Shown: positions 6,099 through 45,482 of the stretch, in pieces
Layout: every line of letters starts with the position of its first letter
Position numbering within the stretch: the first letter of the stretch is position 1
Source of the DNA: Acidobacteriota bacterium
Lineage (GTDB): Bacteria > Acidobacteriota > JAAYUB01
Direction: 5' to 3'
DNA length: 64,000 nt
Assembly: GCA_029565065.1 (NCBI GenBank)
Contig: JAKQOW010000032.1
Location: 52,102-116,101 of the forward strand
The notes under the pieces: model-generated
What the model was told of the DNA's origin: nothing
The model's database searches: none
The model's input: the letters and a program-made list of their open reading frames with translations, nothing else
Translations under genes and position numbers: made by a program

Positions 6099-6518
6099 AT
6101 GCGCCACTACCGTCAGGAACTGACCTTCCAGACTCCGACCCGTTTCGCCCTCGTCAACATCACGCCGCAGGTGGCAGAAGCCGTCCGCGCCAGCGGCGTG
6201 CGGGAAGGGCTCTGTCTGGTCAATGCCATGCACATCACCGCCTCCGTTTTCATCAACGACGACGAGCCGGGCTTGCACCAGGATTATCAGGATTGGCTGG
6301 AGCAACTCGCGCCCCACAGCCCCACCACGCGCTACCGCCACAACCGGACGGGCGAGGACAACGGCGCCGCGCATCTCAAGCGCCAGATCATGGGGCGGGA
6401 AGTGGTCGTGGCCGTCAGCGGGGGTGCGCTCGACTTCGGCCCGTGGGAGCAGATCTTCTACGGCGAGTTCGACGGGCGCCGCCGCAAGCGGGTCCTGATC
6501 AAGATCATCGGGGAGTGA
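6099..6518 (+). CDS. YjbQ/UPF0047-family protein (secondary thiamine-phosphate synthase-like)
   Basis: 139 aa with the typical YjbQ length and conserved [15 protein letters not shown] / HLKRQ segments. Confidence 0.8.
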
Positions 6519-6557
6519 AATCCGGGCGCCGGCTCGCCACCGCCTCCGGCGCCGGAG

Positions 6558-9500
6558 TTACTCCGCCAGCCGGGCGGCCAGCAGGCGGCAATCCAGGGCA
6601 TCGAGCACGCCGGACCGGTTGAGGTCGCCCATGTCCGGCCGGAGACAGGGCGGCGCGCCGGGCGCCAGGTTGCCCACGACCAGGTGCAGCAACAGGCTCA
6701 GATCCCGGGCATCGGACCGTCCGTCGCCATCCAAGTCGCCGTCGGGCTCCAGGACACAGCGGAATTCGCGGCCGCTAATCCGGACATCGTCCACGTACCA
6801 GCCGCCCGATCCCACCAGCAGGTCGCAGCCCAGGCGGAAGCGGATCTGGACTCGCCGGCCGCCGTACGCGTCGAGATCCACCCGGGTCTGGATGAACCCC
6901 TGGCTATCGCCGGACCAGGCGGCGCGCCGGCCCAGCGGGTTGAGCAGGAAGAAATCCAGTTCGTGTGTGTAGCCACCGGTGCTCATCACCGGACCGAGAT
7001 CGGTCCACGGCTCCGTGGCGGTCCGGATCTCCAGGACGCCGCCGTCAGACTCTGTCTCCAGATCGTAATCGTGCCAGAAGGTCAACGCCGCACCTTCAGG
7101 CACCTCGAACCAGGGGCTCAGTAACGAGTTGTCTTTGACGTTGTCTTCCGCGGAGGTGAACCAGCTGGTCACCGGAGAGTGGCTCCACCCGGCGACCGTC
7201 GACCAGTCGGTCATTCCCTGGTCGAGTACGTGGCTCCACCCGCTCGCTCCCGCTTCCACGTCGTCCGCGAATGTGATCCGGTCCACCTCCTCGCCCGCAG
7301 TCAGCGTCATCGGCTGCTCCCACTGCAGCGCGTCGCCTGCTTCGTTCCAGCATTCGATGGTCAGCTGCCAATCCAGGTGCGCGCCGCAGGCCAGCGCATC
7401 ATCCAGGATGACGCCGAACTCGCAGGCCGCGACGGCGCCGACCGCCAGTGTGGAGTGATTACAGGCCGCGGGGTCTATCTGGACCTCCGGCATGACAGCG
7501 GCCAGACTGGCGGTGACGTCCATGGCGGGACTCGTGCCGATGTTCTGCAGCGTCAGCTGCATGGTCACCGTCTCGCCCGGTTCCGGGATCCCGTCACCGT
7601 CGCCGCCCCAAAATTGCCAGTCGGTCGGTACCACCACCGGCCCCACCACCGGCATGAAGCAGAGGCTGAACCCGGGTTCCACCACCGGTTCACGGCAGGC
7701 GAATTGAATCCCTTTCGTCCCGTTGTAATCCTCGATCCCCACCGTGGCGTCGGCGCCGAAGTCATAGGCCGGGTCGCCGAACTCGGTGTCCTGGTAATTG
7801 AGGTGGATCTTGTGGGTCGATTCTTCCAGCGCGATCTGGAACGTGACCGCCCCGACCTTGTTGTAATGCGCCACGTTCAGCCAGGAGACCACGAACAGCC
7901 GATGAGGCGGCTGCCCGTCGACTCGGTGGCGGATGACCGACCCCGGCTTGGTCAGGTCCAGGTCGGTCCAGAGCGCCGCAATGACTGCGTTGGGATTCTC
8001 CGGCCGGGGGATCTGCGCGTTGCCGGCGTCCCAATCGTAGGCGTCGGCGAAGCGGAGCAACCCGTTCGTGGAGATCAGCACCTGCTCATACGTCTTGCCA
8101 TAAAACTTGAACGGAAACCCGATCGGTACGACCGCGCCCGCGTCATCCTGGCCGGCCAGGACGGCCGTGCCGCCCGTCGGCTCGATCCAGGCCGGATCCT
8201 GCGTCAGCATCAGGTAGTCCATCCGCTCCACCACCTCGCCCGGGACCACCTCCTGGTCGGCGGTCAGACCGGGCGCGCTGGCGGAATACGTGATCTCTGC
8301 GCTGCTCGGACCCGTCGGCACCCACCGTCCGGTGAACATCCCGTCGTCCGCCAGGAGGTCGGCGCCCTCGCCGTTGTCGCGCAGGGTGTAAGTTCGTGTA
8401 CCCGCCGCATCCACCACCCGGGCGGTGACGTGCGGCTGGTCCACCGGCTCGGCGCAATCGGTGCCCACCACGGCGCGCAGGGTCACGTCATCACCGTCCA
8501 TGACGATGAATCCGCCTGCCGGCTGGTCGGGGGCAAGCCGGACGGCTGTCGGGGTGCAGGTCCAGTGCAGGGCGGTCTCGGGGCATCCGAAGAGGGTGGT
8601 TTCAAAATAGATCCAACGGTAACTGCCGTCGCCGGCCAGGCCGGCCAGGCGCTGACGGGATTCGTTCAGGGCGAGACCGAGATTGTGGCGGAACTGCTCG
8701 AACACGGACCGCATGTACTCGTGGTCGAACACGTTGGACGTGCCGTTGGTGCCGCCGGACGCATACCAGCCGTAGCGCGTGTTCATCACCACGGCGAACG
8801 CGGCGGCGGTGGTGCCCACGGTCATCCGCTCAGCGAAACAGACGTCGTAGACGAAATTCCCCGGGTAGCAACCCTGGCTGTACACAAAAAACGGGCGGGT
8901 GTTGGTGAGCCGGCTGATATCGGAGTTGTACAGCTTCAGGCAATAGGTGCTGTTGGCGTGCCCCAGGTGGTTGACGATGTGCGTGTCGTCGGTGTTGAAA
9001 CAGGTGTCGATCAGCGTGTCGGCCGACCACTCCGCACCCGGCGCGTCATACAGGCGCTCGGCGGGAATCCCGGCCATTGCTCCGTAGACGACATCCTTGC
9101 TGTCGCCGCCCCAGGTCTGGTCGTCCAGCTTCTCGCCCAACAGCAGCGCGCGGAAGGGCGGCGCGGAGTTCTCGTAGGCGATGATCTTCTGAATCTGGGT
9201 GGTCGCCTCCGTGGGGCTGGAGGCGGCGATGCGGCCCACCGCCACCTCCGCGAACAGGTCGGTTTCATCGGCGGGTTCGCCGTACAAACCGTTGCCGTTC
9301 GCGTTCCAGTCGCCATCGAGGGCGGCAAAATAGAGATCGGTGGGGATGGCGGCGTCCACGGTGTCGCCGACCTTGCCATAAGCGCCCCGCCACGGGATGA
9401 TCTCGCTGTCGCCGCCGAGCACCACCCAGCGGGTGCCGTGGCTCTGGTATCCGGTGGTGATAAACGTGCGGAGCTTGTGTGCGTTGTCGGTGCCCGGCGT

Positions 9501-10280
9501 GGCGGCAAGGATGTCCTCGATTCGGGCGAGATGGACATTCAGCCCCCGACCCGCCTTGTGATCAGCCAGTTCCTGGAAGCTGGCTTCCAGCGCCGCGTTC
9601 GTCACGATCAGGTACTCCCACGCCGTGTCCAGCGTTTTCGCCTCCGGCGGGGCGTAGCCGTCCAGCGCCGCGGGATTGTCCACGAGCGCGGCCACTTCCG
9701 CCCGGTCATCCGCCAGCGGGCGTCGCATCGGCGCGGCCTTGGCCCGCGGCTCCGGCGCCAGCGTGAGCACGAGCCGCATCCGGGGGATGAACTGCAGCTC
9801 GCCGGCGGCCGGGTAGTACACCACCGGATGCAGCGTGAAGAGGGCGACCGGATACCCCTTGAGCCACTGCACGCCGGCCGCCGCGGCGCGGGCGTCGGGA
9901 AACGGCCCGGGCGCGCCGTAGATCCGTGGATCGGGCGCCACCGGTTCGGCGCCGGCCCCCGCCGTGGGGAACAGGCCGGGACAATGGGAAACCCGGACCG
10001 GCCGACCCAATACTTCCGGCACCTCGGTCTTGAGGTCGAAGCTCACCAGGCGGTGTCCCGCGGGGAGGAGCACCCGCCCGGTAAACACCGGCAGCATGGG
10101 CTGGCCGGGTTCCAGCGAATCCGGGCAACCGGCGACCCGAACGTCCACCCGGCCGTCCGGGCGCCGCTCCAGCCGCGGCCTTTCGAAGCGGTATTCCAGC
10201 ACGAGTTCCTCCGCGGCCATCCAAGCCGCGGCGAGAAACAGCAGGACCAGCGCACCCGACATCCGTCTCATGGACACCAT
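6558..10280 (-). CDS. secreted gingipain-like cysteine peptidase (family C25) with a C-terminal dockerin-type domain
   Basis: Signal peptide, then a C25 propeptide-like region. The catalytic region has a His in IVNHLGHANSTY and a Cys in FFVYSQGCYPGNF. It is followed by about 600 aa of β-rich accessory domains. The C-terminal 60 aa contain two Ca-binding repeats, DLDGDGRSDARDLSLLLHLV and DLNRSGVLDALDCRLLAARL, of dockerin type. Confidence 0.75.
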   Translation of the reverse strand: MVSMRRMSGALVLLFLAAAWMAAEELVLEYRFERPRLERRPDGRVDVRVAGCPDSLEPGQPMLPVFTGRVLLPAGHRLVSFDLKTEVPEVLGRPVRVSHCPGLFPTAGAGAEPVAPDPRIYGAPGPFPDARAAAAGVQWLKGYPVALFTLHPVVYYPAAGELQFIPRMRLVLTLAPEPRAKAAPMRRPLADDRAEVAALVDNPAALDGYAPPEAKTLDTAWEYLIVTNAALEASFQELADHKAGRGLNVHLARIEDILAATPGTDNAHKLRTFITTGYQSHGTRWVVLGGDSEIIPWRGAYGKVGDTVDAAIPTDLYFAALDGDWNANGNGLYGEPADETDLFAEVAVGRIAASSPTEATTQIQKIIAYENSAPPFRALLLGEKLDDQTWGGDSKDVVYGAMAGIPAERLYDAPGAEWSADTLIDTCFNTDDTHIVNHLGHANSTYCLKLYNSDISRLTNTRPFFVYSQGCYPGNFVYDVCFAERMTVGTTAAAFAVVMNTRYGWYASGGTNGTSNVFDHEYMRSVFEQFRHNLGLALNESRQRLAGLAGDGSYRWIYFETTLFGCPETALHWTCTPTAVRLAPDQPAGGFIVMDGDDVTLRAVVGTDCAEPVDQPHVTARVVDAAGTRTYTLRDNGEGADLLADDGMFTGRWVPTGPSSAEITYSASAPGLTADQEVVPGEVVERMDYLMLTQDPAWIEPTGGTAVLAGQDDAGAVVPIGFPFKFYGKTYEQVLISTNGLLRFADAYDWDAGNAQIPRPENPNAVIAALWTDLDLTKPGSVIRHRVDGQPPHRLFVVSWLNVAHYNKVGAVTFQIALEESTHKIHLNYQDTEFGDPAYDFGADATVGIEDYNGTKGIQFACREPVVEPGFSLCFMPVVGPVVVPTDWQFWGGDGDGIPEPGETVTMQLTLQNIGTSPAMDVTASLAAVMPEVQIDPAACNHSTLAVGAVAACEFGVILDDALACGAHLDWQLTIECWNEAGDALQWEQPMTLTAGEEVDRITFADDVEAGASGWSHVLDQGMTDWSTVAGWSHSPVTSWFTSAEDNVKDNSLLSPWFEVPEGAALTFWHDYDLETESDGGVLEIRTATEPWTDLGPVMSTGGYTHELDFFLLNPLGRRAAWSGDSQGFIQTRVDLDAYGGRRVQIRFRLGCDLLVGSGGWYVDDVRISGREFRCVLEPDGDLDGDGRSDARDLSLLLHLVVGNLAPGAPPCLRPDMGDLNRSGVLDALDCRLLAARLAE

Positions 10281-10416: not shown

Positions 10417-11772
10417 TCAGAACCGGTAGATGAACGTGCCCTGGGCGCGGACGCTCTGGCCCTCGTTCAAGTCGATGTAGCGGGTCCACCAGGGCGAGAC
10501 TTCCAGACCCACCTGGACCGCGCTGGTGATGCTGTAGTAGAAATTGCCGAACAGCGCCATGTTGCGCGAGCGGTTGCCGGAGGCCAGGTCGCGGTTGACC
10601 GGGTCGTCCACGGCGCCGCCCAGGTTGAACTTCCAACCCTTCCACGGACCGAAGCCCACAGCGGCCCAGCCGCCGATGCTGCGGATCTCGTTGAGCCGAG
10701 CCTTGTTGAAGCCCTGCCCCACCGCCGCCAGGTAGGTGTCGACATTGGCGCCGCGCCAGAACTCGCCCTGCAGCGTCACGCCCTTGGCCAGCGGCAGCTG
10801 GGCGTCCAGACCCCATGAATACGTGTCGAGGTCCACACTGTTGCCGGCGGCGTCCAGGTCGTACTCCTCCTGGCCCCAGTGGCCGTACACGCCCACCGTC
10901 GCCTTGCGCTTCTCGCCGAAGGGCAGCGTCAGCGCCAGCCGGCTCTGGACGGTAGGGAAGCCGGCGTCCTCGCCACCGTCGCCCGGATCGTAACCGGAGG
11001 TGTGGCCGATGGTCCGGACGAACGCGCCCTGGAGCTGCAGCTTGGTGTCGCCGCCCAGATCGAATCCCTTGGTCAGCCGGAACTGCGGCCGGCGGTAGCC
11101 CGGATTGCCGGTCCACCACATCACGGTGTAGTTGATGGTGTCGGGCAGTAGCGGCGCGATCACGTCCGAGGTCTGGCCGGCCAGCAGGCTGAAGTCATGC
11201 TCCGGCCACTCCAGCTTCACGAACGCGTGGCGCAGCATCGGCTGGGGCTTGTTCTCGCCGCCCTCCAGGCTGTAGAAGTCGATCTCGACGTTGCCGGTGG
11301 TCTTGATCGATCCGGTGGCCGGCCCGTTGATGTTGAGCCCCACCCGGGTCTGGTTGGCGGTCATGTTGAACTCGTCGTCCTTGCCGCCGGGGCCCTCGGG
11401 CAGCACCCACCGGGCGAAGTCGCCCACGTCGGTCCGGGCGGTGTCGTAGGCGGCGTCCAGCTTGACGAAGCCGTACAGCTCCACCGCCGGTTTCTTTTTG
11501 GCCGCCGCTTCGTCAGCTTTCGCGACGGCAGCCGGGGCCGGCGCCGGAGCGGGGGTCGGGGCGGGCGCGGGAGCCGGGGCGGCCGCCGGCTCGCGGAGCG
11601 CCAGCTGGCGCACCTCCGCAATCGCCACCTCGAGCTGGCGGATCTTTTCCCGCAGCTCCATGTTCTCTTTCTTGAGCGCCTGGAGCTCGTCCTGCACGGA
11701 GGCTCCCTGGCCCAGCACACAGCCGGCGGCGAGGCACAGCCACACTCCGGCGATGATGAGGGGATTACGCAT
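10417..11772 (-). CDS. outer-membrane porin with an N-terminal coiled-coil (DcaP-like)
   Basis: Signal peptide, then a heptad coiled-coil (LQALKKENMELREKIRQLEVAIAEVRQL), then a PAPAPAPTPAPAPAPA linker, then about 330 aa of alternating amphipathic β-strands ending GTFIYRF (C-terminal Phe). An AAGGAG Shine-Dalgarno precedes the ATG. Confidence 0.7.
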   Translation of the reverse strand: MRNPLIIAGVWLCLAAGCVLGQGASVQDELQALKKENMELREKIRQLEVAIAEVRQLALREPAAAPAPAPAPTPAPAPAPAAVAKADEAAAKKKPAVELYGFVKLDAAYDTARTDVGDFARWVLPEGPGGKDDEFNMTANQTRVGLNINGPATGSIKTTGNVEIDFYSLEGGENKPQPMLRHAFVKLEWPEHDFSLLAGQTSDVIAPLLPDTINYTVMWWTGNPGYRRPQFRLTKGFDLGGDTKLQLQGAFVRTIGHTSGYDPGDGGEDAGFPTVQSRLALTLPFGEKRKATVGVYGHWGQEEYDLDAAGNSVDLDTYSWGLDAQLPLAKGVTLQGEFWRGANVDTYLAAVGQGFNKARLNEIRSIGGWAAVGFGPWKGWKFNLGGAVDDPVNRDLASGNRSRNMALFGNFYYSITSAVQVGLEVSPWWTRYIDLNEGQSVRAQGTFIYRF

Positions 11773-40961: not shown

Positions 40962-41612
40962 GTGAGCGGCTATAATCGGGCCACACGATTCTGGCTGGAC
41001 ACTGAGGGACCATCCGACGCTATGCCGACCCTGGACGAAGAATTGGCGGAACTCGAAAAGCGGATCCGCCAGCTGAAAATCGAGTACGACATCTTCCTCA
41101 TCGGCGGGAAGAAGACCCCGCCCCGCAACCTCCAGAGCTCGGTGGACACGATGATCCAGCGCCTGCTCGAGGAGAAGCGGTTCGCGTTCGCGCAGAAATT
41201 CAAGTTCCAAACTCTGGTCGCCCGTTACAGCAGCTACCGCGAGCTCTGGCGCAAGAAGAACCAGGAACGCGAGGAGAAGGGCATCCTGCGCAGCGAGGAA
41301 GAGCTGCAGTCCATGATCGAGCACGGACTCACCCGGCCGCTGGAGACCACCCCTCCCGACAAATATGTATTTGTCACCGACAATCCCGCCGCCGAACCCC
41401 AGCAGCTCCAGGCCATGTTCGATTTCCTGAACGAGGCTCATCGCCGGGTCGGCGACAACCCGCCGAACATGGACTTTGACAAATTCCGGAAACTGATCGA
41501 AACCCGGACCGAGGAGATCCGAAAAAAATACAAGTGCCGGTATGTCGAGTTCTCCGTGTCCGTGGACAGCGACGAGAACAAGGTGAAATTTGCAGCCAAA
41601 CTGAAAAAGTAA
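40962..41612 (+). CDS. hypothetical highly charged protein
   Basis: Lys/Glu-rich ORF with no motif I recognise. The likely start is the internal MPTLDEE at about 41022. Confidence 0.5.
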   Translation: MSGYNRATRFWLDTEGPSDAMPTLDEELAELEKRIRQLKIEYDIFLIGGKKTPPRNLQSSVDTMIQRLLEEKRFAFAQKFKFQTLVARYSSYRELWRKKNQEREEKGILRSEEELQSMIEHGLTRPLETTPPDKYVFVTDNPAAEPQQLQAMFDFLNEAHRRVGDNPPNMDFDKFRKLIETRTEEIRKKYKCRYVEFSVSVDSDENKVKFAAKLKK

Positions 41613-41740
41613 GACGGCCGCAGCGAAAAGGGTTGCAACCCAACCGTCCGGTGCGGTATCAATAATATCCTCCGACACGATAGTTGTTGTGCTAATATGT
41701 TTTTACTGTTTTCTGATTGATCTAGGTTGAGGGTATTACC

Positions 41741-43666
41741 ATGAAGAAATTTATGCTGACTCTGACAATCCTCGCCGCACTCGGTGCCGGAGTGGCGGCC
41801 CAGGGCGGACCGTTTTCCGGCAACGCCGAGGTCTACCTCCAGCTCACCCCGGCGACACCCGCCATCAACAGCACGTTCGAGGTGGACGTGTACGTGGACT
41901 TGACCGGGATCACCGGTTCCGGATCCACCGCGGCAGCGCTGGGCGGATTCGCCATCCCGGTTGCCTTCGACAACTCCCGGCTGACTTTGACATCCGTCGA
42001 GGCGGGCACCAGCGGCTCCTTCACTCCCGGCGACCTGGTGTTCACCGACCTGCCCCGCGCCAACGCCCGCGGATTCGTCACCGTGGTGAACACGCAGACG
42101 GCCTCGGGCACGCCGACCGGCATCGTCCACGTGGCCACCCTGACCTTCCAGACGGGTCCCCAGGGGGGCCGGGTCCGGTTCAACGTCAACTCCGCCCGCA
42201 CCATCCACGAGGGATCGCTGGCTTCGACCTACACCGCCGCCAACGGTGGGCCGGATGAGATTCCTTACGACGATGAGGCCGCCCTGGTCACCATCGCGAC
42301 CGGAGGCACATCCTACAGCATCTATTATCCGGTTTTCATCTCCGGCGACGCCGACTTCATGGGCGTCACCGTGGTCAACGAGGGCGTCGCCACGGAGAAC
42401 CTGAACTTCCGGGCTTACAATCCCGCCGGTCAACTCATCACCCAGGCCGGCATGACCAACCCCAACGTGAGCGACGGCCCCCTGGCGCCGCTGCAGCAGT
42501 ATGTCCGTATGAGCCACAACCTCTTCGGCAGCTCCGGCGCGCTGGACATCGAACATGGCTGGATCGAAGTGACCGCCAACGAGCACAACCTGAGCGGCTT
42601 CTTCCTGATCGGCCACTTTGAGGGCGCGGACATCACCCAGATGGACGGCGCCGAAGTGGGACACCAGGTCGCCTCCCGGGTGATCTTCCCGATCCTGGGC
42701 AAGGACGCCGCCCGCGACACCGACTTGTACGCGATCAATCCCGGCACGACGGCCGCCGCCGGCAACTTGCTGATGAAAGACAATCTCGGCAATACCGTCC
42801 AGACCATTCCCGTCAACATCCCGGCGCACGGCGTATACGAGGGCACCTTCACCGCGAACACCCTGGACCGCTACTTCGACCTCACCCTGACCTCCGGCGA
42901 GGTGCTCGGCTTCCAGTTCTTCGGCAACGCCAACGCCCTGGCCGGCCTCAACGCCCAGGCGGCGGCGGACACAACGGCCAACATTCTGTACGACGCCCAC
43001 TTCGCCTCCGGCAACTACGGGATCCGCTATTTCACGGAAATCAATGTGATCAACGCCTCCGCCCAGGTGGCCAACCTCACCTTGCACCTGATCAACGACG
43101 CGGGGAGCGAGATCGTCACTCCCGTCGCCCGCACCCTCAATCCCGGCGCCCAACTCCGGGTGATGGGACACACCCTGTTCGGCTTGCCCGATCCACTGAC
43201 CGCCGCGGATGGCGTGAGCGGTTCCGTCATGATCGAGAGCGATCAGGGTGTGGTCGGATCCATCACCTTCGGTGACGCTCAGAACGGCCTCTTCCTGGCC
43301 AGCTTGCCGTTGCTCTCCACCTCGGCCGCCAAGCGCGAAATCTACCTGGACCACGTGGCGATCGGCCTGATCGGCACGGTCAACTACTGGACGGGCATCG
43401 CGCTGGTCAATCCCAGCCGGACTCGCACCGCCTCCATCAACCTTCAGCTATACGATCAGAACGGCAACCTGACGGCTCAAACCGCCACGCCGGTCGAGTT
43501 GGCTCCCGGTCAGCGCACGTCGCGCATGCTCCCCAACTTCTTCCCGGGATTCAGCGGCAGCCAGTTCGGCGGCTTCGTCCGGCTGACTTCGGACGTCGAA
43601 GTGTTCTCCTTCATGCTCTTCGGCGACGTCAGCCTGAATTTCCTCGCGGCGGTGCCGGTTCGGTAA
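41741..43666 (+). CDS. secreted protein with an N-terminal cohesin-like domain and C-terminal β-sandwich repeats
   Basis: Preceded by an AT-rich region. Signal peptide MKKFMLTLTILAALGAGVAAQG. The segment FEVDVYVDLTGITGSGSTAAALGGFAIPVAFDNSRLTLTSVEAG...GIVHVATLTFQT follows the cohesin pattern. The antisense 638-aa ORF is Gly/Val/Asp-rich junk. Confidence 0.7.
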   Translation: MKKFMLTLTILAALGAGVAAQGGPFSGNAEVYLQLTPATPAINSTFEVDVYVDLTGITGSGSTAAALGGFAIPVAFDNSRLTLTSVEAGTSGSFTPGDLVFTDLPRANARGFVTVVNTQTASGTPTGIVHVATLTFQTGPQGGRVRFNVNSARTIHEGSLASTYTAANGGPDEIPYDDEAALVTIATGGTSYSIYYPVFISGDADFMGVTVVNEGVATENLNFRAYNPAGQLITQAGMTNPNVSDGPLAPLQQYVRMSHNLFGSSGALDIEHGWIEVTANEHNLSGFFLIGHFEGADITQMDGAEVGHQVASRVIFPILGKDAARDTDLYAINPGTTAAAGNLLMKDNLGNTVQTIPVNIPAHGVYEGTFTANTLDRYFDLTLTSGEVLGFQFFGNANALAGLNAQAAADTTANILYDAHFASGNYGIRYFTEINVINASAQVANLTLHLINDAGSEIVTPVARTLNPGAQLRVMGHTLFGLPDPLTAADGVSGSVMIESDQGVVGSITFGDAQNGLFLASLPLLSTSAAKREIYLDHVAIGLIGTVNYWTGIALVNPSRTRTASINLQLYDQNGNLTAQTATPVELAPGQRTSRMLPNFFPGFSGSQFGGFVRLTSDVEVFSFMLFGDVSLNFLAAVPVR

Positions 43667-43721
43667 TCCGTCCGCGTGACGCACTGAGAATCCCCAAACC
43701 CCCTGGGCCCGCCCAGGGGGT

Positions 43722-45482
43722 TTGTGTTATCCGGCAGGCGACATGCGATCCAACCGGGAATGGACAATCTTCCAACGCAAGCAGGCGGACGACTGTCTGG
43801 TGGGCGTGGTCTACCCGGCCGCCTACGCGGTGGGGATGAGCAACCTCGGCTTCCAATGGGTGCTTCGGCAGCTGGACATCACCCCGGGATTCTTCGGCGA
43901 ACGGTTTTTCCACACACCCGGTGCCGCGGCGCCCCGGTCGCTGGAGGGTCGCCGGCGCCCGGGCGACTGCCACCTACTGGCCTTTTCCGTGTCGTTCGAG
44001 ACCGACTACCTCGCCGTGCTGCAGTTCCTGGCGGCTGCCGGGCTGCCGCTCCAGTCCGCCCAGCGGGACCGGCGGCATCCGCTCGTGGTGGCCGGCGGCG
44101 CCGCCCTGCAGGTGAATCCGGAGCCGCTGGCGTTGTTCGTGGACCTCGTCGTGGTGGGCGAGGCGGAAGCCGCCTGGGCCGAGCTCTTGGCGGTGTACCG
44201 CGACACCGCCGACCGCCAGGAACTGCTGGTCCGCCTCGCCGGGAGGCCGGGATTCTATGTCCCCTCGTGGTGGGAGATCCGCTATGGCGACGACGGGGCG
44301 ATCGTGCAGCAGGAGCGGACCGCCGACGCGCCGGCCGGCGCCGAACCGGTGGTCCGCCTGCCGGTGCTCACCGCCGATGATCTGGCTGCGTTGGAACCGC
44401 CGTTCACCAATCTGCTGAGCACCGGCACCGAGTTCGCCCGGACCCTGCTGGTGGAGGTCGCCCGCGGCTGTCCCACCGGCTGCCGGTACTGCTGGGCCGG
44501 TTACCGCTATCGGCCGGTGCGGCCCTTCGCCGAGAGCCGGATCCTCGCGATCGCCGATGCCGCCCGCGGCCACACGGACAAGATCGGCCTCGTCTCGACG
44601 GCCGTCGGCCAGTACCCCGATCTGGCCCGCCTGATGGCCGACCTGCACCGCCGCGGATTCCACCTCGGTCTGTCGTCGATGCGGCTGGCGGATCTCACTC
44701 CGGAGTTGCTGCGCATCCTCGCCGAAGGCGGCGAGGACACGCTCACCCTGGCGCCGGAGACGGGCGCCGATTCTATGCGCGCCCGGCTCAACAAGCCGTT
44801 CACCAACGAGCAGCTCCTGGACGGCTGTCGCACGGCCCGGGCTGCGGGGATCCGCCGCGTCCGCCTCTATTTCATGGCGGGACTCCCCGGCGAGGAACCG
44901 GCGGACGCCGACGCGGCCGCCGCGCTAGCCGAAGCGGCCGGCCGGGCCCTGACCGGCCGCACCGGGGATGGCCGATTGCCGGTGACGGTGTCGCTCTCCC
45001 CGTTTGTGCCCAAGCCCAACACCCCCTTTCAATATGCGGCGATGCCCCCCCTCCCCGAGCTGCGGGCGACGCTGCGCCGATACGCCGCCGCGTTTCGCCG
45101 CCGCGGAATCGACGCGCAGATCGGTTCCGCCCGGGAGGCCCACCTCCAGTGGCGCCTGGCCACCGGCAGCCGGGTGACGGGTCAACAGCTGGTGGCGGTG
45201 GCGGAAGGCACGGCTGATCCCGCCGATCTGATCGCTGAACACAGCGCCGTCGCGGCGCGCCCGTTCGTCGCCACGCCGGGCCGCCGCCCGCCGTGGGCAA
45301 TGACCACGTGGGGTTTGTCGGAGAACCATATCCTCGAAGAATGGCGCCGGTTCCGGTCGGGCGACCTCACCCCTCCTTGCCCCAGTCTCGCCGGATGCAC
45401 GCGGTGCGGGATCTGCGGAAGCACGGATCCGTCACCCGACGCTCCCCCATCTCGGCCCGACGATCCTGAATCCACCCGTTGA
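43722..45482 (+). CDS. B12-binding-domain radical SAM protein with a long C-terminal extension
   Basis: CPTGCRYC (a C-x3-C-x2-C radical-SAM cluster) follows a B12-binding-like N-terminal region. The C-terminal part is about 200 aa and Ala/Arg-rich, ending in the Cys cluster CPSLAGCTRCGICGS. Confidence 0.75.
   Translation: MCYPAGDMRSNREWTIFQRKQADDCLVGVVYPAAYAVGMSNLGFQWVLRQLDITPGFFGERFFHTPGAAAPRSLEGRRRPGDCHLLAFSVSFETDYLAVLQFLAAAGLPLQSAQRDRRHPLVVAGGAALQVNPEPLALFVDLVVVGEAEAAWAELLAVYRDTADRQELLVRLAGRPGFYVPSWWEIRYGDDGAIVQQERTADAPAGAEPVVRLPVLTADDLAALEPPFTNLLSTGTEFARTLLVEVARGCPTGCRYCWAGYRYRPVRPFAESRILAIADAARGHTDKIGLVSTAVGQYPDLARLMADLHRRGFHLGLSSMRLADLTPELLRILAEGGEDTLTLAPETGADSMRARLNKPFTNEQLLDGCRTARAAGIRRVRLYFMAGLPGEEPADADAAAALAEAAGRALTGRTGDGRLPVTVSLSPFVPKPNTPFQYAAMPPLPELRATLRRYAAAFRRRGIDAQIGSAREAHLQWRLATGSRVTGQQLVAVAEGTADPADLIAEHSAVAARPFVATPGRRPPWAMTTWGLSENHILEEWRRFRSGDLTPPCPSLAGCTRCGICGSTDPSPDAPPSRPDDPESTR

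Follow-up and report, generated by a model that had tools for sequence, protein, structure and literature searches.

The best functional analogy that we can offer for the protein described here is with the single-cohesin anchoring proteins of Clostridium thermocellum, OlpA, OlpC and SdbA. These proteins (type I or II cohesin plus SLH) are secreted, carry one cohesin as a head and end in a C-terminal module that is thought to attach them to the cell envelope; the enzymes that carry the dockerins have their genes elsewhere in the genome. Here we analysed 64,000 nucleotides from the genome of an Acidobacteriota bacterium (assembly GCA_029565065.1, contig JAKQOW010000032.1, positions 52,102 to 116,101 of the forward strand; hereafter, the window). 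At positions 41741-43666 it holds a gene whose product follows the same plan, with one cohesin on a tetrad of ASRAH domains, and elsewhere it encodes a gingipain-like C25 protease that ends in a dockerin. In contrast to OlpA, OlpC and SdbA, the host is a diderm member of the Acidobacteriota rather than a Firmicute, the ASRAH tetrad is present and SLH is absent, the cohesin is too divergent for the Pfam model PF00963, the proposed clients comprise a protease, an FG-GAP protein and others rather than glycoside hydrolases, and binding is predicted.

Bacteria and archaea are already known to carry cohesin and dockerin modules outside cellulosomes, some of them on peptidases (Peer et al. 2009, as cited in PMC6487960 and PMC9012536). 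The co-occurrence of the two modules in the window is therefore not unusual in kind, and an earlier annotation of the window from its letters (the sequence-only reading), which called a cohesin together with a dockerin on a protease unusual, put the matter too strongly. Modules from Archaeoglobus fulgidus (2xdh), from toxin complexes of Clostridium perfringens (2vo8, 2jh2 and 2w1n) and from anaerobic methanotrophic (ANME) archaea are, like those described here, unrelated to cellulose breakdown. The papers that we retrieved on non-cellulosomal cohesins and dockerins, among which we made no search aimed at the fusion itself, do not describe a cohesin joined to ASRAH domains, nor do they describe a dockerin gene preceding a cohesin-ASRAH gene. 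Both this architecture and this gene pair look new, as does a cohesin subfamily of some size that escapes PF00963.

We consider it probable that the gene product is a secreted docking protein with a single cohesin, composed of a signal peptide, a divergent cohesin and an ASRAH tetrad, which serves as a minimal anchoring scaffoldin in a non-cellulosomal network and for which the C25 protease is a plausible client. The Sec pathway would export the protein and the signal peptide would be removed. The tetrad would then fold into a compact pseudo-tetramer and bind a glycan, which may be a cell-envelope polysaccharide (anchoring) or a polymeric substrate (targeting), while the N-terminal cohesin would capture the Ca2+-dependent dockerin modules of other secreted proteins. 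The protein would work much as OlpA, OlpC and SdbA do, with ASRAH domains in place of the SLH anchor, and its setting would be a cohesin-dockerin network of Acidobacteriota that live in anaerobic digesters. The parts of the gene are as follows.

41741-43666, + strand: cohesin-ASRAH gene, an open reading frame (ORF) of 641 residues.
41741-41800, + strand: Sec signal peptide, residues 1-20, with predicted cleavage between VAA and QGG; AlphaFold2 (AF2) gives a helix at residues 2-15 and a low predicted local distance difference test score (pLDDT) at residues 15-19.
41801-42307, + strand: divergent cohesin module, residues ~21-189, a nine-strand β-sandwich.
42308-42664, + strand: ASRAH (ASRT-like) repeat 1, residues 190-308, with invariant Asn213.
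42665-42964, + strand: ASRAH repeat 2, residues 309-408, with invariant Asn333; weak MG2 and FlgD_ig matches in orthologs.
42965-43324, + strand: ASRAH repeat 3, residues 409-528, with invariant Asn438; HHalign probability of 98.8% to repeat 4.
43325-43663, + strand: ASRAH repeat 4, residues 529-641, with invariant Asn557 and a conserved C-terminus ...AVPVR; DUF5719 match at residues 553-598.

The ORF is exactly as the sequence-only reading had described it, and the signal peptide that it named is present. Among 5.8 billion proteins searched, 27 relatives were found, and 26 of these are ~640 residues in length with identities of 38-97%; those that are named by source come from metagenome-assembled genomes (MAGs) of Acidobacteria. 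With a C-terminal profile the total rises to more than 50 full-length relatives in Acidobacteriota MAGs, and on these two counts the ORF is a real, conserved gene and not a chance reading frame. 'Hypothetical protein' is the sole annotation of every family member. The matches in reference genomes are likewise Acidobacteriota MAGs, and two isolate names (AnMBR and Go_SlDig) point to anaerobic reactors or digesters; one ortholog of 93% identity sits on a contig of 5.0 Mb.

The N-terminal domain has the cohesin fold: it is a flattened jelly-roll β-sandwich of nine strands and ~140 residues and can be superimposed on cohesins of solved structure. The AF2 model of the full-length protein is confident (pLDDT 89.6; predicted template modelling score (pTM) 0.87), and the N-domain modelled alone has a pLDDT of 83.1. 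At the level of sequence, the family profile matches a single PDB chain, the cohesin 10uv_A (E = 0.13 with the full-length profile and 0.043 with the N-domain profile); a phmmer search of PDB sequences with the window protein itself gave nothing, and NCBIfam gave no cohesin match to it. The check with Pfam Cohesin that the sequence-only reading proposed gave no match for the window protein; among isolated N-domains of orthologs it is the top family, matched by 4 of 21 (best E = 2.2e-5). A hidden Markov model (HMM) of the N-domain, A2, retrieved 181 proteins from 1.84 billion cluster representatives at 50% identity. Several of these carry 4-7 tandem copies that exceed the gathering threshold (GA) of Pfam Cohesin, at 52-105 bits (GA 24.1). 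The A2 profile matches P0080, P0095, P0124, P0163 and P0168 (E = 4e-16 to 2e-6), each of which has 1-5 Pfam Cohesin stretches, and in P0124 the regions found by the two models overlap (744-819 and 720-852). By fold and by transitive profile homology, residues 21-190 are a real but very divergent cohesin, as had been proposed, and the generic CARDB or Big sandwich that the sequence-only reading had named as the finding that would overturn it is ruled out. The Pfam Cohesin model misses a sizeable subfamily (the 181 cluster representatives), and cohesin censuses of environmental genomes are therefore underestimates.

Structural comparison over the whole length suggested another kinship. Foldseek matched the model to the Ig domains of PrgB and to the α2-macroglobulin family (A2ML1, TEP1 and CD109) with E-values of 5e-11 to 1e-6, and 6 of the 27 family members have weak Pfam matches to MG2, as might be expected of a protease inhibitor related to α2-macroglobulin, built of macroglobulin (MG) domains, or of an adhesin made of Ig repeats. 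We consider this very improbable. The TM-scores of those matches are 0.1-0.16, the level of generic β-sandwich arrays, and the N-domain is clearly a cohesin. α2-Macroglobulins and other thioester proteins are recognized by a CxEQ motif, a bait region, more than 1,200 residues and at least seven MG domains, and the window protein does not have this set: it contains no cysteine, so that no thioester is possible, has no CxEQ motif and, at 641 residues, is far too short.

The ~450 residues that follow the cohesin had been described as β-rich repeats. HHalign divides them into four homologous units of 100-120 residues each (residues 190-641; pairwise probabilities of 92-99%), none of which is related to the cohesin, and each has the eight-strand β-sandwich of the ASRT/TM1070 type. 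The ASRAH superfamily was defined by De Souza, Iyer and Aravind in 2009 and predicted to bind sugars; its secreted members are always dyads (an actinobacterial lipoprotein family) or tetrads (fused to a MurNAc-L-Ala peptidoglycan amidase in Chloroflexi), strand 2 ends in a nearly invariant Asn, and secreted ASRAH families lack the His and Cys residues of ASRT (PMC2739507). The four repeats of the window protein agree with this rule of dyads or tetrads. They are likewise secreted and sit on a functional head as in the amidase family, and each has an invariant Asn at the end of strand 2 (N213, N333, N438 and N557, unchanged across 27 sequences, in the pattern h-h-N-[PE]-[GS]). The His and Cys ligand residues of the ASRT family are absent here too. 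The tetrad differs from the described superfamily in its head, which is a cohesin rather than an enzyme, in its phylum, Acidobacteriota, and in the first-strand Trp of the superfamily, in place of which we read Tyr or Phe (Y195/Y196, F316, Y416/F420 and Y535) ~25 residues before each Asn.

The repeats were scored against two Pfam families. We take the secreted ASRAH dyads of actinobacteria to be the Pfam family DUF5719 (PF18986), for which a literature search found nothing. The window protein itself scores 17.4-18.6 bits against DUF5719, under the GA of 26.2; its relatives P0003 and P0300 pass, with 29.2 and 30.3 bits, and DUF5719 matches 18 of the 27 family members (best E = 1.5e-9). P0297 passes Pfam ASRT (PF07100) with 27.5 bits (GA 25), in a region that falls on repeat 3 by our own coordinate mapping.

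No anchor of a standard kind was found in the protein, among transmembrane helix, LPXTG, PEP-CTERM, T9SS (type IX secretion system) and SLH motifs. It ends ...FLAAVPVR, with no hydrophobic tail and no NCBIfam match of the PEP-CTERM or IPTL-CTERM sorting type, and it is not a lipoprotein since the lack of any cysteine leaves no lipobox. In this the sequence-only reading, which recognized no anchoring motif, was right; what it passed over is that the repeats are ASRAH domains, predicted to bind glycans, and may themselves anchor or target the protein. The tetrad is always C-terminal and ends ...A(V/I)P... a few residues from the end. The heads vary: the main family has a cohesin, P0315 two fn3 domains, P0316 Big_1 and P0311 a fragment of an M36 metallopeptidase. 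With its fixed position under changing heads, the tetrad looks like a base shared by different heads, for anchoring or for targeting, and the high pTM of the full-length model fits a compact pseudo-tetramer.

Gene context gives the strongest support for a docking function of the family. Among the nine family members whose surroundings we examined, four have a dockerin gene immediately upstream on the same strand. In L010 this gene encodes an FG-GAP β-propeller protein (Dockerin_1, 37.5 bits), 100 bp upstream of the cohesin-ASRAH gene; in L015 and L016 it encodes proteins of ~340 residues (30.2 and 29.5 bits), 74-75 bp upstream; and on the contig of P0307 a Dockerin_1 protein of 334 residues lies 35 bp upstream. 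These cases span two clades, with 34-49% identity to the window protein: P0300, P0304 and P0307 share 50-64% identity with each other and 34-41% with the other family members compared, and P0021 (from L010) is 49% identical to P0001, a near-identical homolog of the window protein. In L001 and L011 a small dockerin protein is encoded 8 kb from the cohesin-ASRAH gene, so that Dockerin_1 proteins above threshold adjoin or neighbour orthologs in L010, L011, L001, L015 and L016. Dockerin genes are rare, and adjacency at four loci is therefore unlikely to be due to chance. Accepted cohesins hold dockerins tightly, in a Ca2+-dependent manner, on their 8-3-6-5 face, and for predicted binding of this kind the adjacent dockerin genes are indirect support. 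At L015 (12029-13881), L016 (11993-13845) and the P0307 contig, the cohesin-ASRAH gene is followed by a conserved gene for an AhpC/TSA-type thioredoxin-fold protein and a DUF6029 gene, and the dockerin, cohesin-ASRAH, AhpC/TSA and DUF6029 genes may form a four-gene operon.

The same context bears on whether the cohesin fold binds dockerins at all. The protein could instead be mainly a secreted or periplasmic glycan-binding protein, in which the cohesin fold is a spacer, an oligomerization module or a sandwich for some other ligand; the divergence of the domain from the Pfam model would suit this, as would the high pTM, which suggests that the cohesin may pack against the tetrad, the occurrence of the tetrad under fn3 and Big_1 heads that are possibly mere spacers, and the lack of a dockerin neighbour in the sublineage of the window. 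We regard it as improbable, given the dockerin genes immediately adjacent at four loci in two clades, the strong conservation of the N-domain with motifs of a surface type (RANARGF and NSARTxHEGSLAS) and the presence of true multi-cohesin proteins and cohesin-plus-dockerin proteins among its closest relatives.

A mature N-terminus of the form AQGxP[IF]xGxA is common to the wider cohesin subfamily, which includes several other architectures. P0073, P0077 and P0087 start with a cohesin of this subfamily, continue with cadherin-like, Big_9 or Invasin_D3 repeats and end in a dockerin; their layout recalls that of adaptor scaffoldins and would imply multi-tier assemblies in non-cellulolytic bacteria. 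P0048, P0057, P0076 and P0039 are ~215 residues in length, and in them a signal peptide and a cohesin are followed by a tail of the form (I/V)P-x-L, hydrophobic helix, Arg/Lys (literally IPTL in P0048). These short proteins look like cohesins anchored by a sorting signal of the exosortase type; none scored above threshold against the PEP-CTERM and IPTL-CTERM sorting models of NCBIfam. The dockerin proteins of the lineage are also of several kinds (DUF11-repeat proteins, small proteins of 221-291 residues and FG-GAP proteins). In L013, at 6334-9507 on the - strand, a second dockerin protein with seven DUF11 repeats and a CARDB domain adjoins an ortholog of the C25-dockerin protease, and dockerin-bearing genes seem to cluster. 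Judged from these architectures, the lineage evidently has an elaborate non-cellulosomal cohesin-dockerin network.

In the window, HMM scans detect a single cohesin and a single dockerin, and neither regular-expression nor HMM searches found a second of either kind there. The dockerin is that of the protease.

6558-10280, - strand: secreted gingipain-like C25 cysteine protease of 1240 residues (Peptidase_C25, E = 1e-50), with NIDO-like, InhA-like_MAM and dockerin modules.
6561-6740, - strand: dockerin module at the C-terminus of the protease, residues 1181-1240, with two Ca-loop/helix repeats (DLDGDGRSDARD and DLNRSGVLDALD) and a conserved Cys pair.

The match to Dockerin_1 (PF00404) scores 17.8 bits (E = 0.0039; profile positions 2-56 of 57), under the GA of 22.9. 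Dockerin repeats are recognized by an EF-hand-like Ca loop, with D, N or S at positions 1, 3, 5, 9 and 12, followed by a helix; the module shows this type I pattern in two repeats of ~22 residues, DLDGDGRSDARD...LLLHLVVG and DLNRSGVLDALD...LLAARL. Both the dockerin and its Cys pair are kept in all 13 full-length orthologs of the protease (39-92% identity), four of which (P0181, P0182, P0183 and P0187) carry a precomputed PF00404 annotation. One Cys of the pair lies in the linker between the repeats (...PPC...) and the other in the second helix (...DC...) of the protease dockerins (P0175-P0187). The pair suggests a dockerin stapled by a disulfide, which would be atypical of cellulosomal type I dockerins.

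Gingipain-type C25 proteases (those of Porphyromonas and their homologs in Eisenbacteria) belong to the same catalytic family and carry a C-terminal module for surface retention, a T9SS domain; the lineage of the window has a dockerin in place of this sorting domain. For many distant C25 homologs (Eisenbacteria and others; set P0175-P0293) the precomputed Pfam annotation lists FlgD_ig or Por_Secre_tail (T9SS) domains, and fn3, PKD and other modules likewise occur in C25 homologs of similar distance. From these lists, the FlgD_ig and T9SS domains seem to hold the position of the dockerin, in what would be a swap of surface-retention modules. A dockerin in place of the T9SS domain would imply non-covalent docking to a cohesin rather than anchoring through T9SS and anionic lipopolysaccharide (A-LPS). 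Directly upstream of the protease gene, on the same strand, lies a gene (10417-11772, - strand) for a protein of 451 residues. This protein has a signal peptide, a coiled coil at its N-terminus, a linker rich in Ala and Pro and a C-terminal ...FIYRF, and it weakly matches the outer-membrane protein DcaP (E = 0.0017); it is probably a porin-like β-barrel.

Several observations weigh against the docking proposal as a whole or against the protease as the partner. Membership of the N-domain in the cohesin family rests on fold and on transitive profile matches because the direct sequence evidence lies below threshold, with no match of PF00963 to the window protein. That ASRAH domains bind sugars is a prediction taken from the literature. 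In a diderm cell the outer membrane has also to be crossed, and the protein could stay periplasmic. The neighbours conserved in the window's own sublineage are sdhA, a protein of 196-216 residues without a Pfam match, a radical-SAM gene and queE. None of these is a dockerin gene, and the upstream neighbour is the cytoplasmic-looking 196-216-residue protein. The protease and cohesin genes lie 31.4 kb apart, a spacing that by itself carries no meaning, and for three protease orthologs the flanks of 1-10 kb per side, limited by contig ends, contain no cohesin gene.

These points leave room for a cohesin that functions as such and takes as its ligand some other dockerin protein of the ~5-Mb genome, with the protease docking to another cohesin (a short tail-anchored one or a multi-cohesin scaffoldin) and the shared window a coincidence. 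We regard this as possible, if distinctly less probable than the reading that we prefer. The dockerin partners adjacent to relatives are FG-GAP or ~340-residue proteins and in no case a C25 protease, the lineage has the several kinds of dockerin protein and many cohesin architectures listed above, and the flanks of the three protease loci are as just described. Against it, the dockerin of the protease is the only one in the window and is 43% identical over 51 residues to the dockerin of the FG-GAP protein beside the cohesin-ASRAH paralog in L010, with the linker motif GNLAxGxPP common to both. Cohesins commonly accept many dockerins of one type, and a single cohesin that did so would be compatible with both readings. 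P0311, a direct fusion of a peptidase to ASRAH domains, fits the idea that peptidase and tetrad can be joined either covalently or through a cohesin-dockerin pair. The sequence-only reading had made the protein a candidate receptor for the protease. The conserved dockerin and the dockerin genes beside relatives support its docking side, while nothing links the cohesin specifically to the C25 protease. We put the chance that the protease is the true ligand of the cohesin at about one third; it is one plausible client of the single-cohesin docking protein and probably not the sole one.

The immediate surroundings of the cohesin-ASRAH gene include two features of expression, both read directly from the sequence.

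41729-41733, + strand: Shine-Dalgarno-like GAGGG, 7 nt 5' of the ATG, in an AT-rich intergenic region.
43699-43728, + strand: probable intrinsic terminator, with a 9-bp GC stem (CCCCCTGGG/CCCAGGGGG), a 4-nt loop and then TTTGTGTT.

With the GAGGG ribosome-binding site upstream and the hairpin and TTTGTGTT downstream, the gene looks monocistronic; a consensus terminator scan did not pick up the hairpin at 43699-43728. The protein begins with a Sec-type signal peptide (MKKFMLTLTILAALGAGVAA, followed by QGG). In the family alignment the mature N-terminus QGxPF is nearly invariant, and the residues after the cleavage site (Q-G-x-P-F/I-x-G-x-A; window positions 41801-41830) hardly vary even among distant cohesin relatives whose C-termini differ. 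An N-terminal pyroglutamate, a cue for processing or sorting, or simply strand 1 of the fold are all possibilities.

The gene upstream (40962-41612, + strand) encodes a protein of 216 residues that has neither a Pfam family nor a signal peptide and whose N-terminus resembles a coiled coil (LAELEKRIRQLKIEYDIFL). The same gene, at 45-98% identity, immediately precedes the cohesin gene in L001, L005, L006, L007, L008, L009, L011 and L017. Downstream, a B12-binding-like radical-SAM gene is listed at 43722-45482 (+ strand) with a TTG start that overlaps the terminator hairpin; its true start is probably the ATG at 43743, since orthologs align only from residue ~10-13 onwards. A 98%-identical fragment of the locus (sdhA, the 216-residue gene and the cohesin gene) occurs on a 2.4-kb contig, JAKQDQ010000059.1 (L007), in a MAG labelled Verrucomicrobiota, a label that probably reflects binning contamination. 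An apparent deletion variant in the 99%-identical copy of L008 (residues ~135-315; counted as 147 residues) was ruled out as an assembly artefact, with a run of 100 N at L008 10405-10504.

Non-cellulosomal cohesin-dockerin pairs are widespread and, to our knowledge, almost none has a known function. Here a compact and conserved family places one cohesin on a predicted glycan-binding tetrad, and in one clade an operon-like pairing with a dockerin protein offers a concrete, clonable pair for non-cellulosomal docking in a diderm phylum. The family also gives the ASRAH/DUF5719 domains a first functional context, and new orthogonal pairs of cohesin and dockerin are useful building blocks for designer protein scaffolds. 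A bolder extension, which we regard as rather unlikely, is that the glycan-anchored cohesin-ASRAH hub is a general display device whose clients are gingipain-like proteases, FG-GAP/integrin-like proteins and DUF11 adhesins, in the role that anchoring by T9SS C-terminal domains has for the homologous proteases of other phyla. If true, it would be a 'proteosome-like' counterpart of the cellulosome, degrading proteins and biofilms, in a Gram-negative phylum. The cohesin-ASRAH family could explain how the abundant Acidobacteriota of anaerobic digesters hold proteases and adhesins at their surface.

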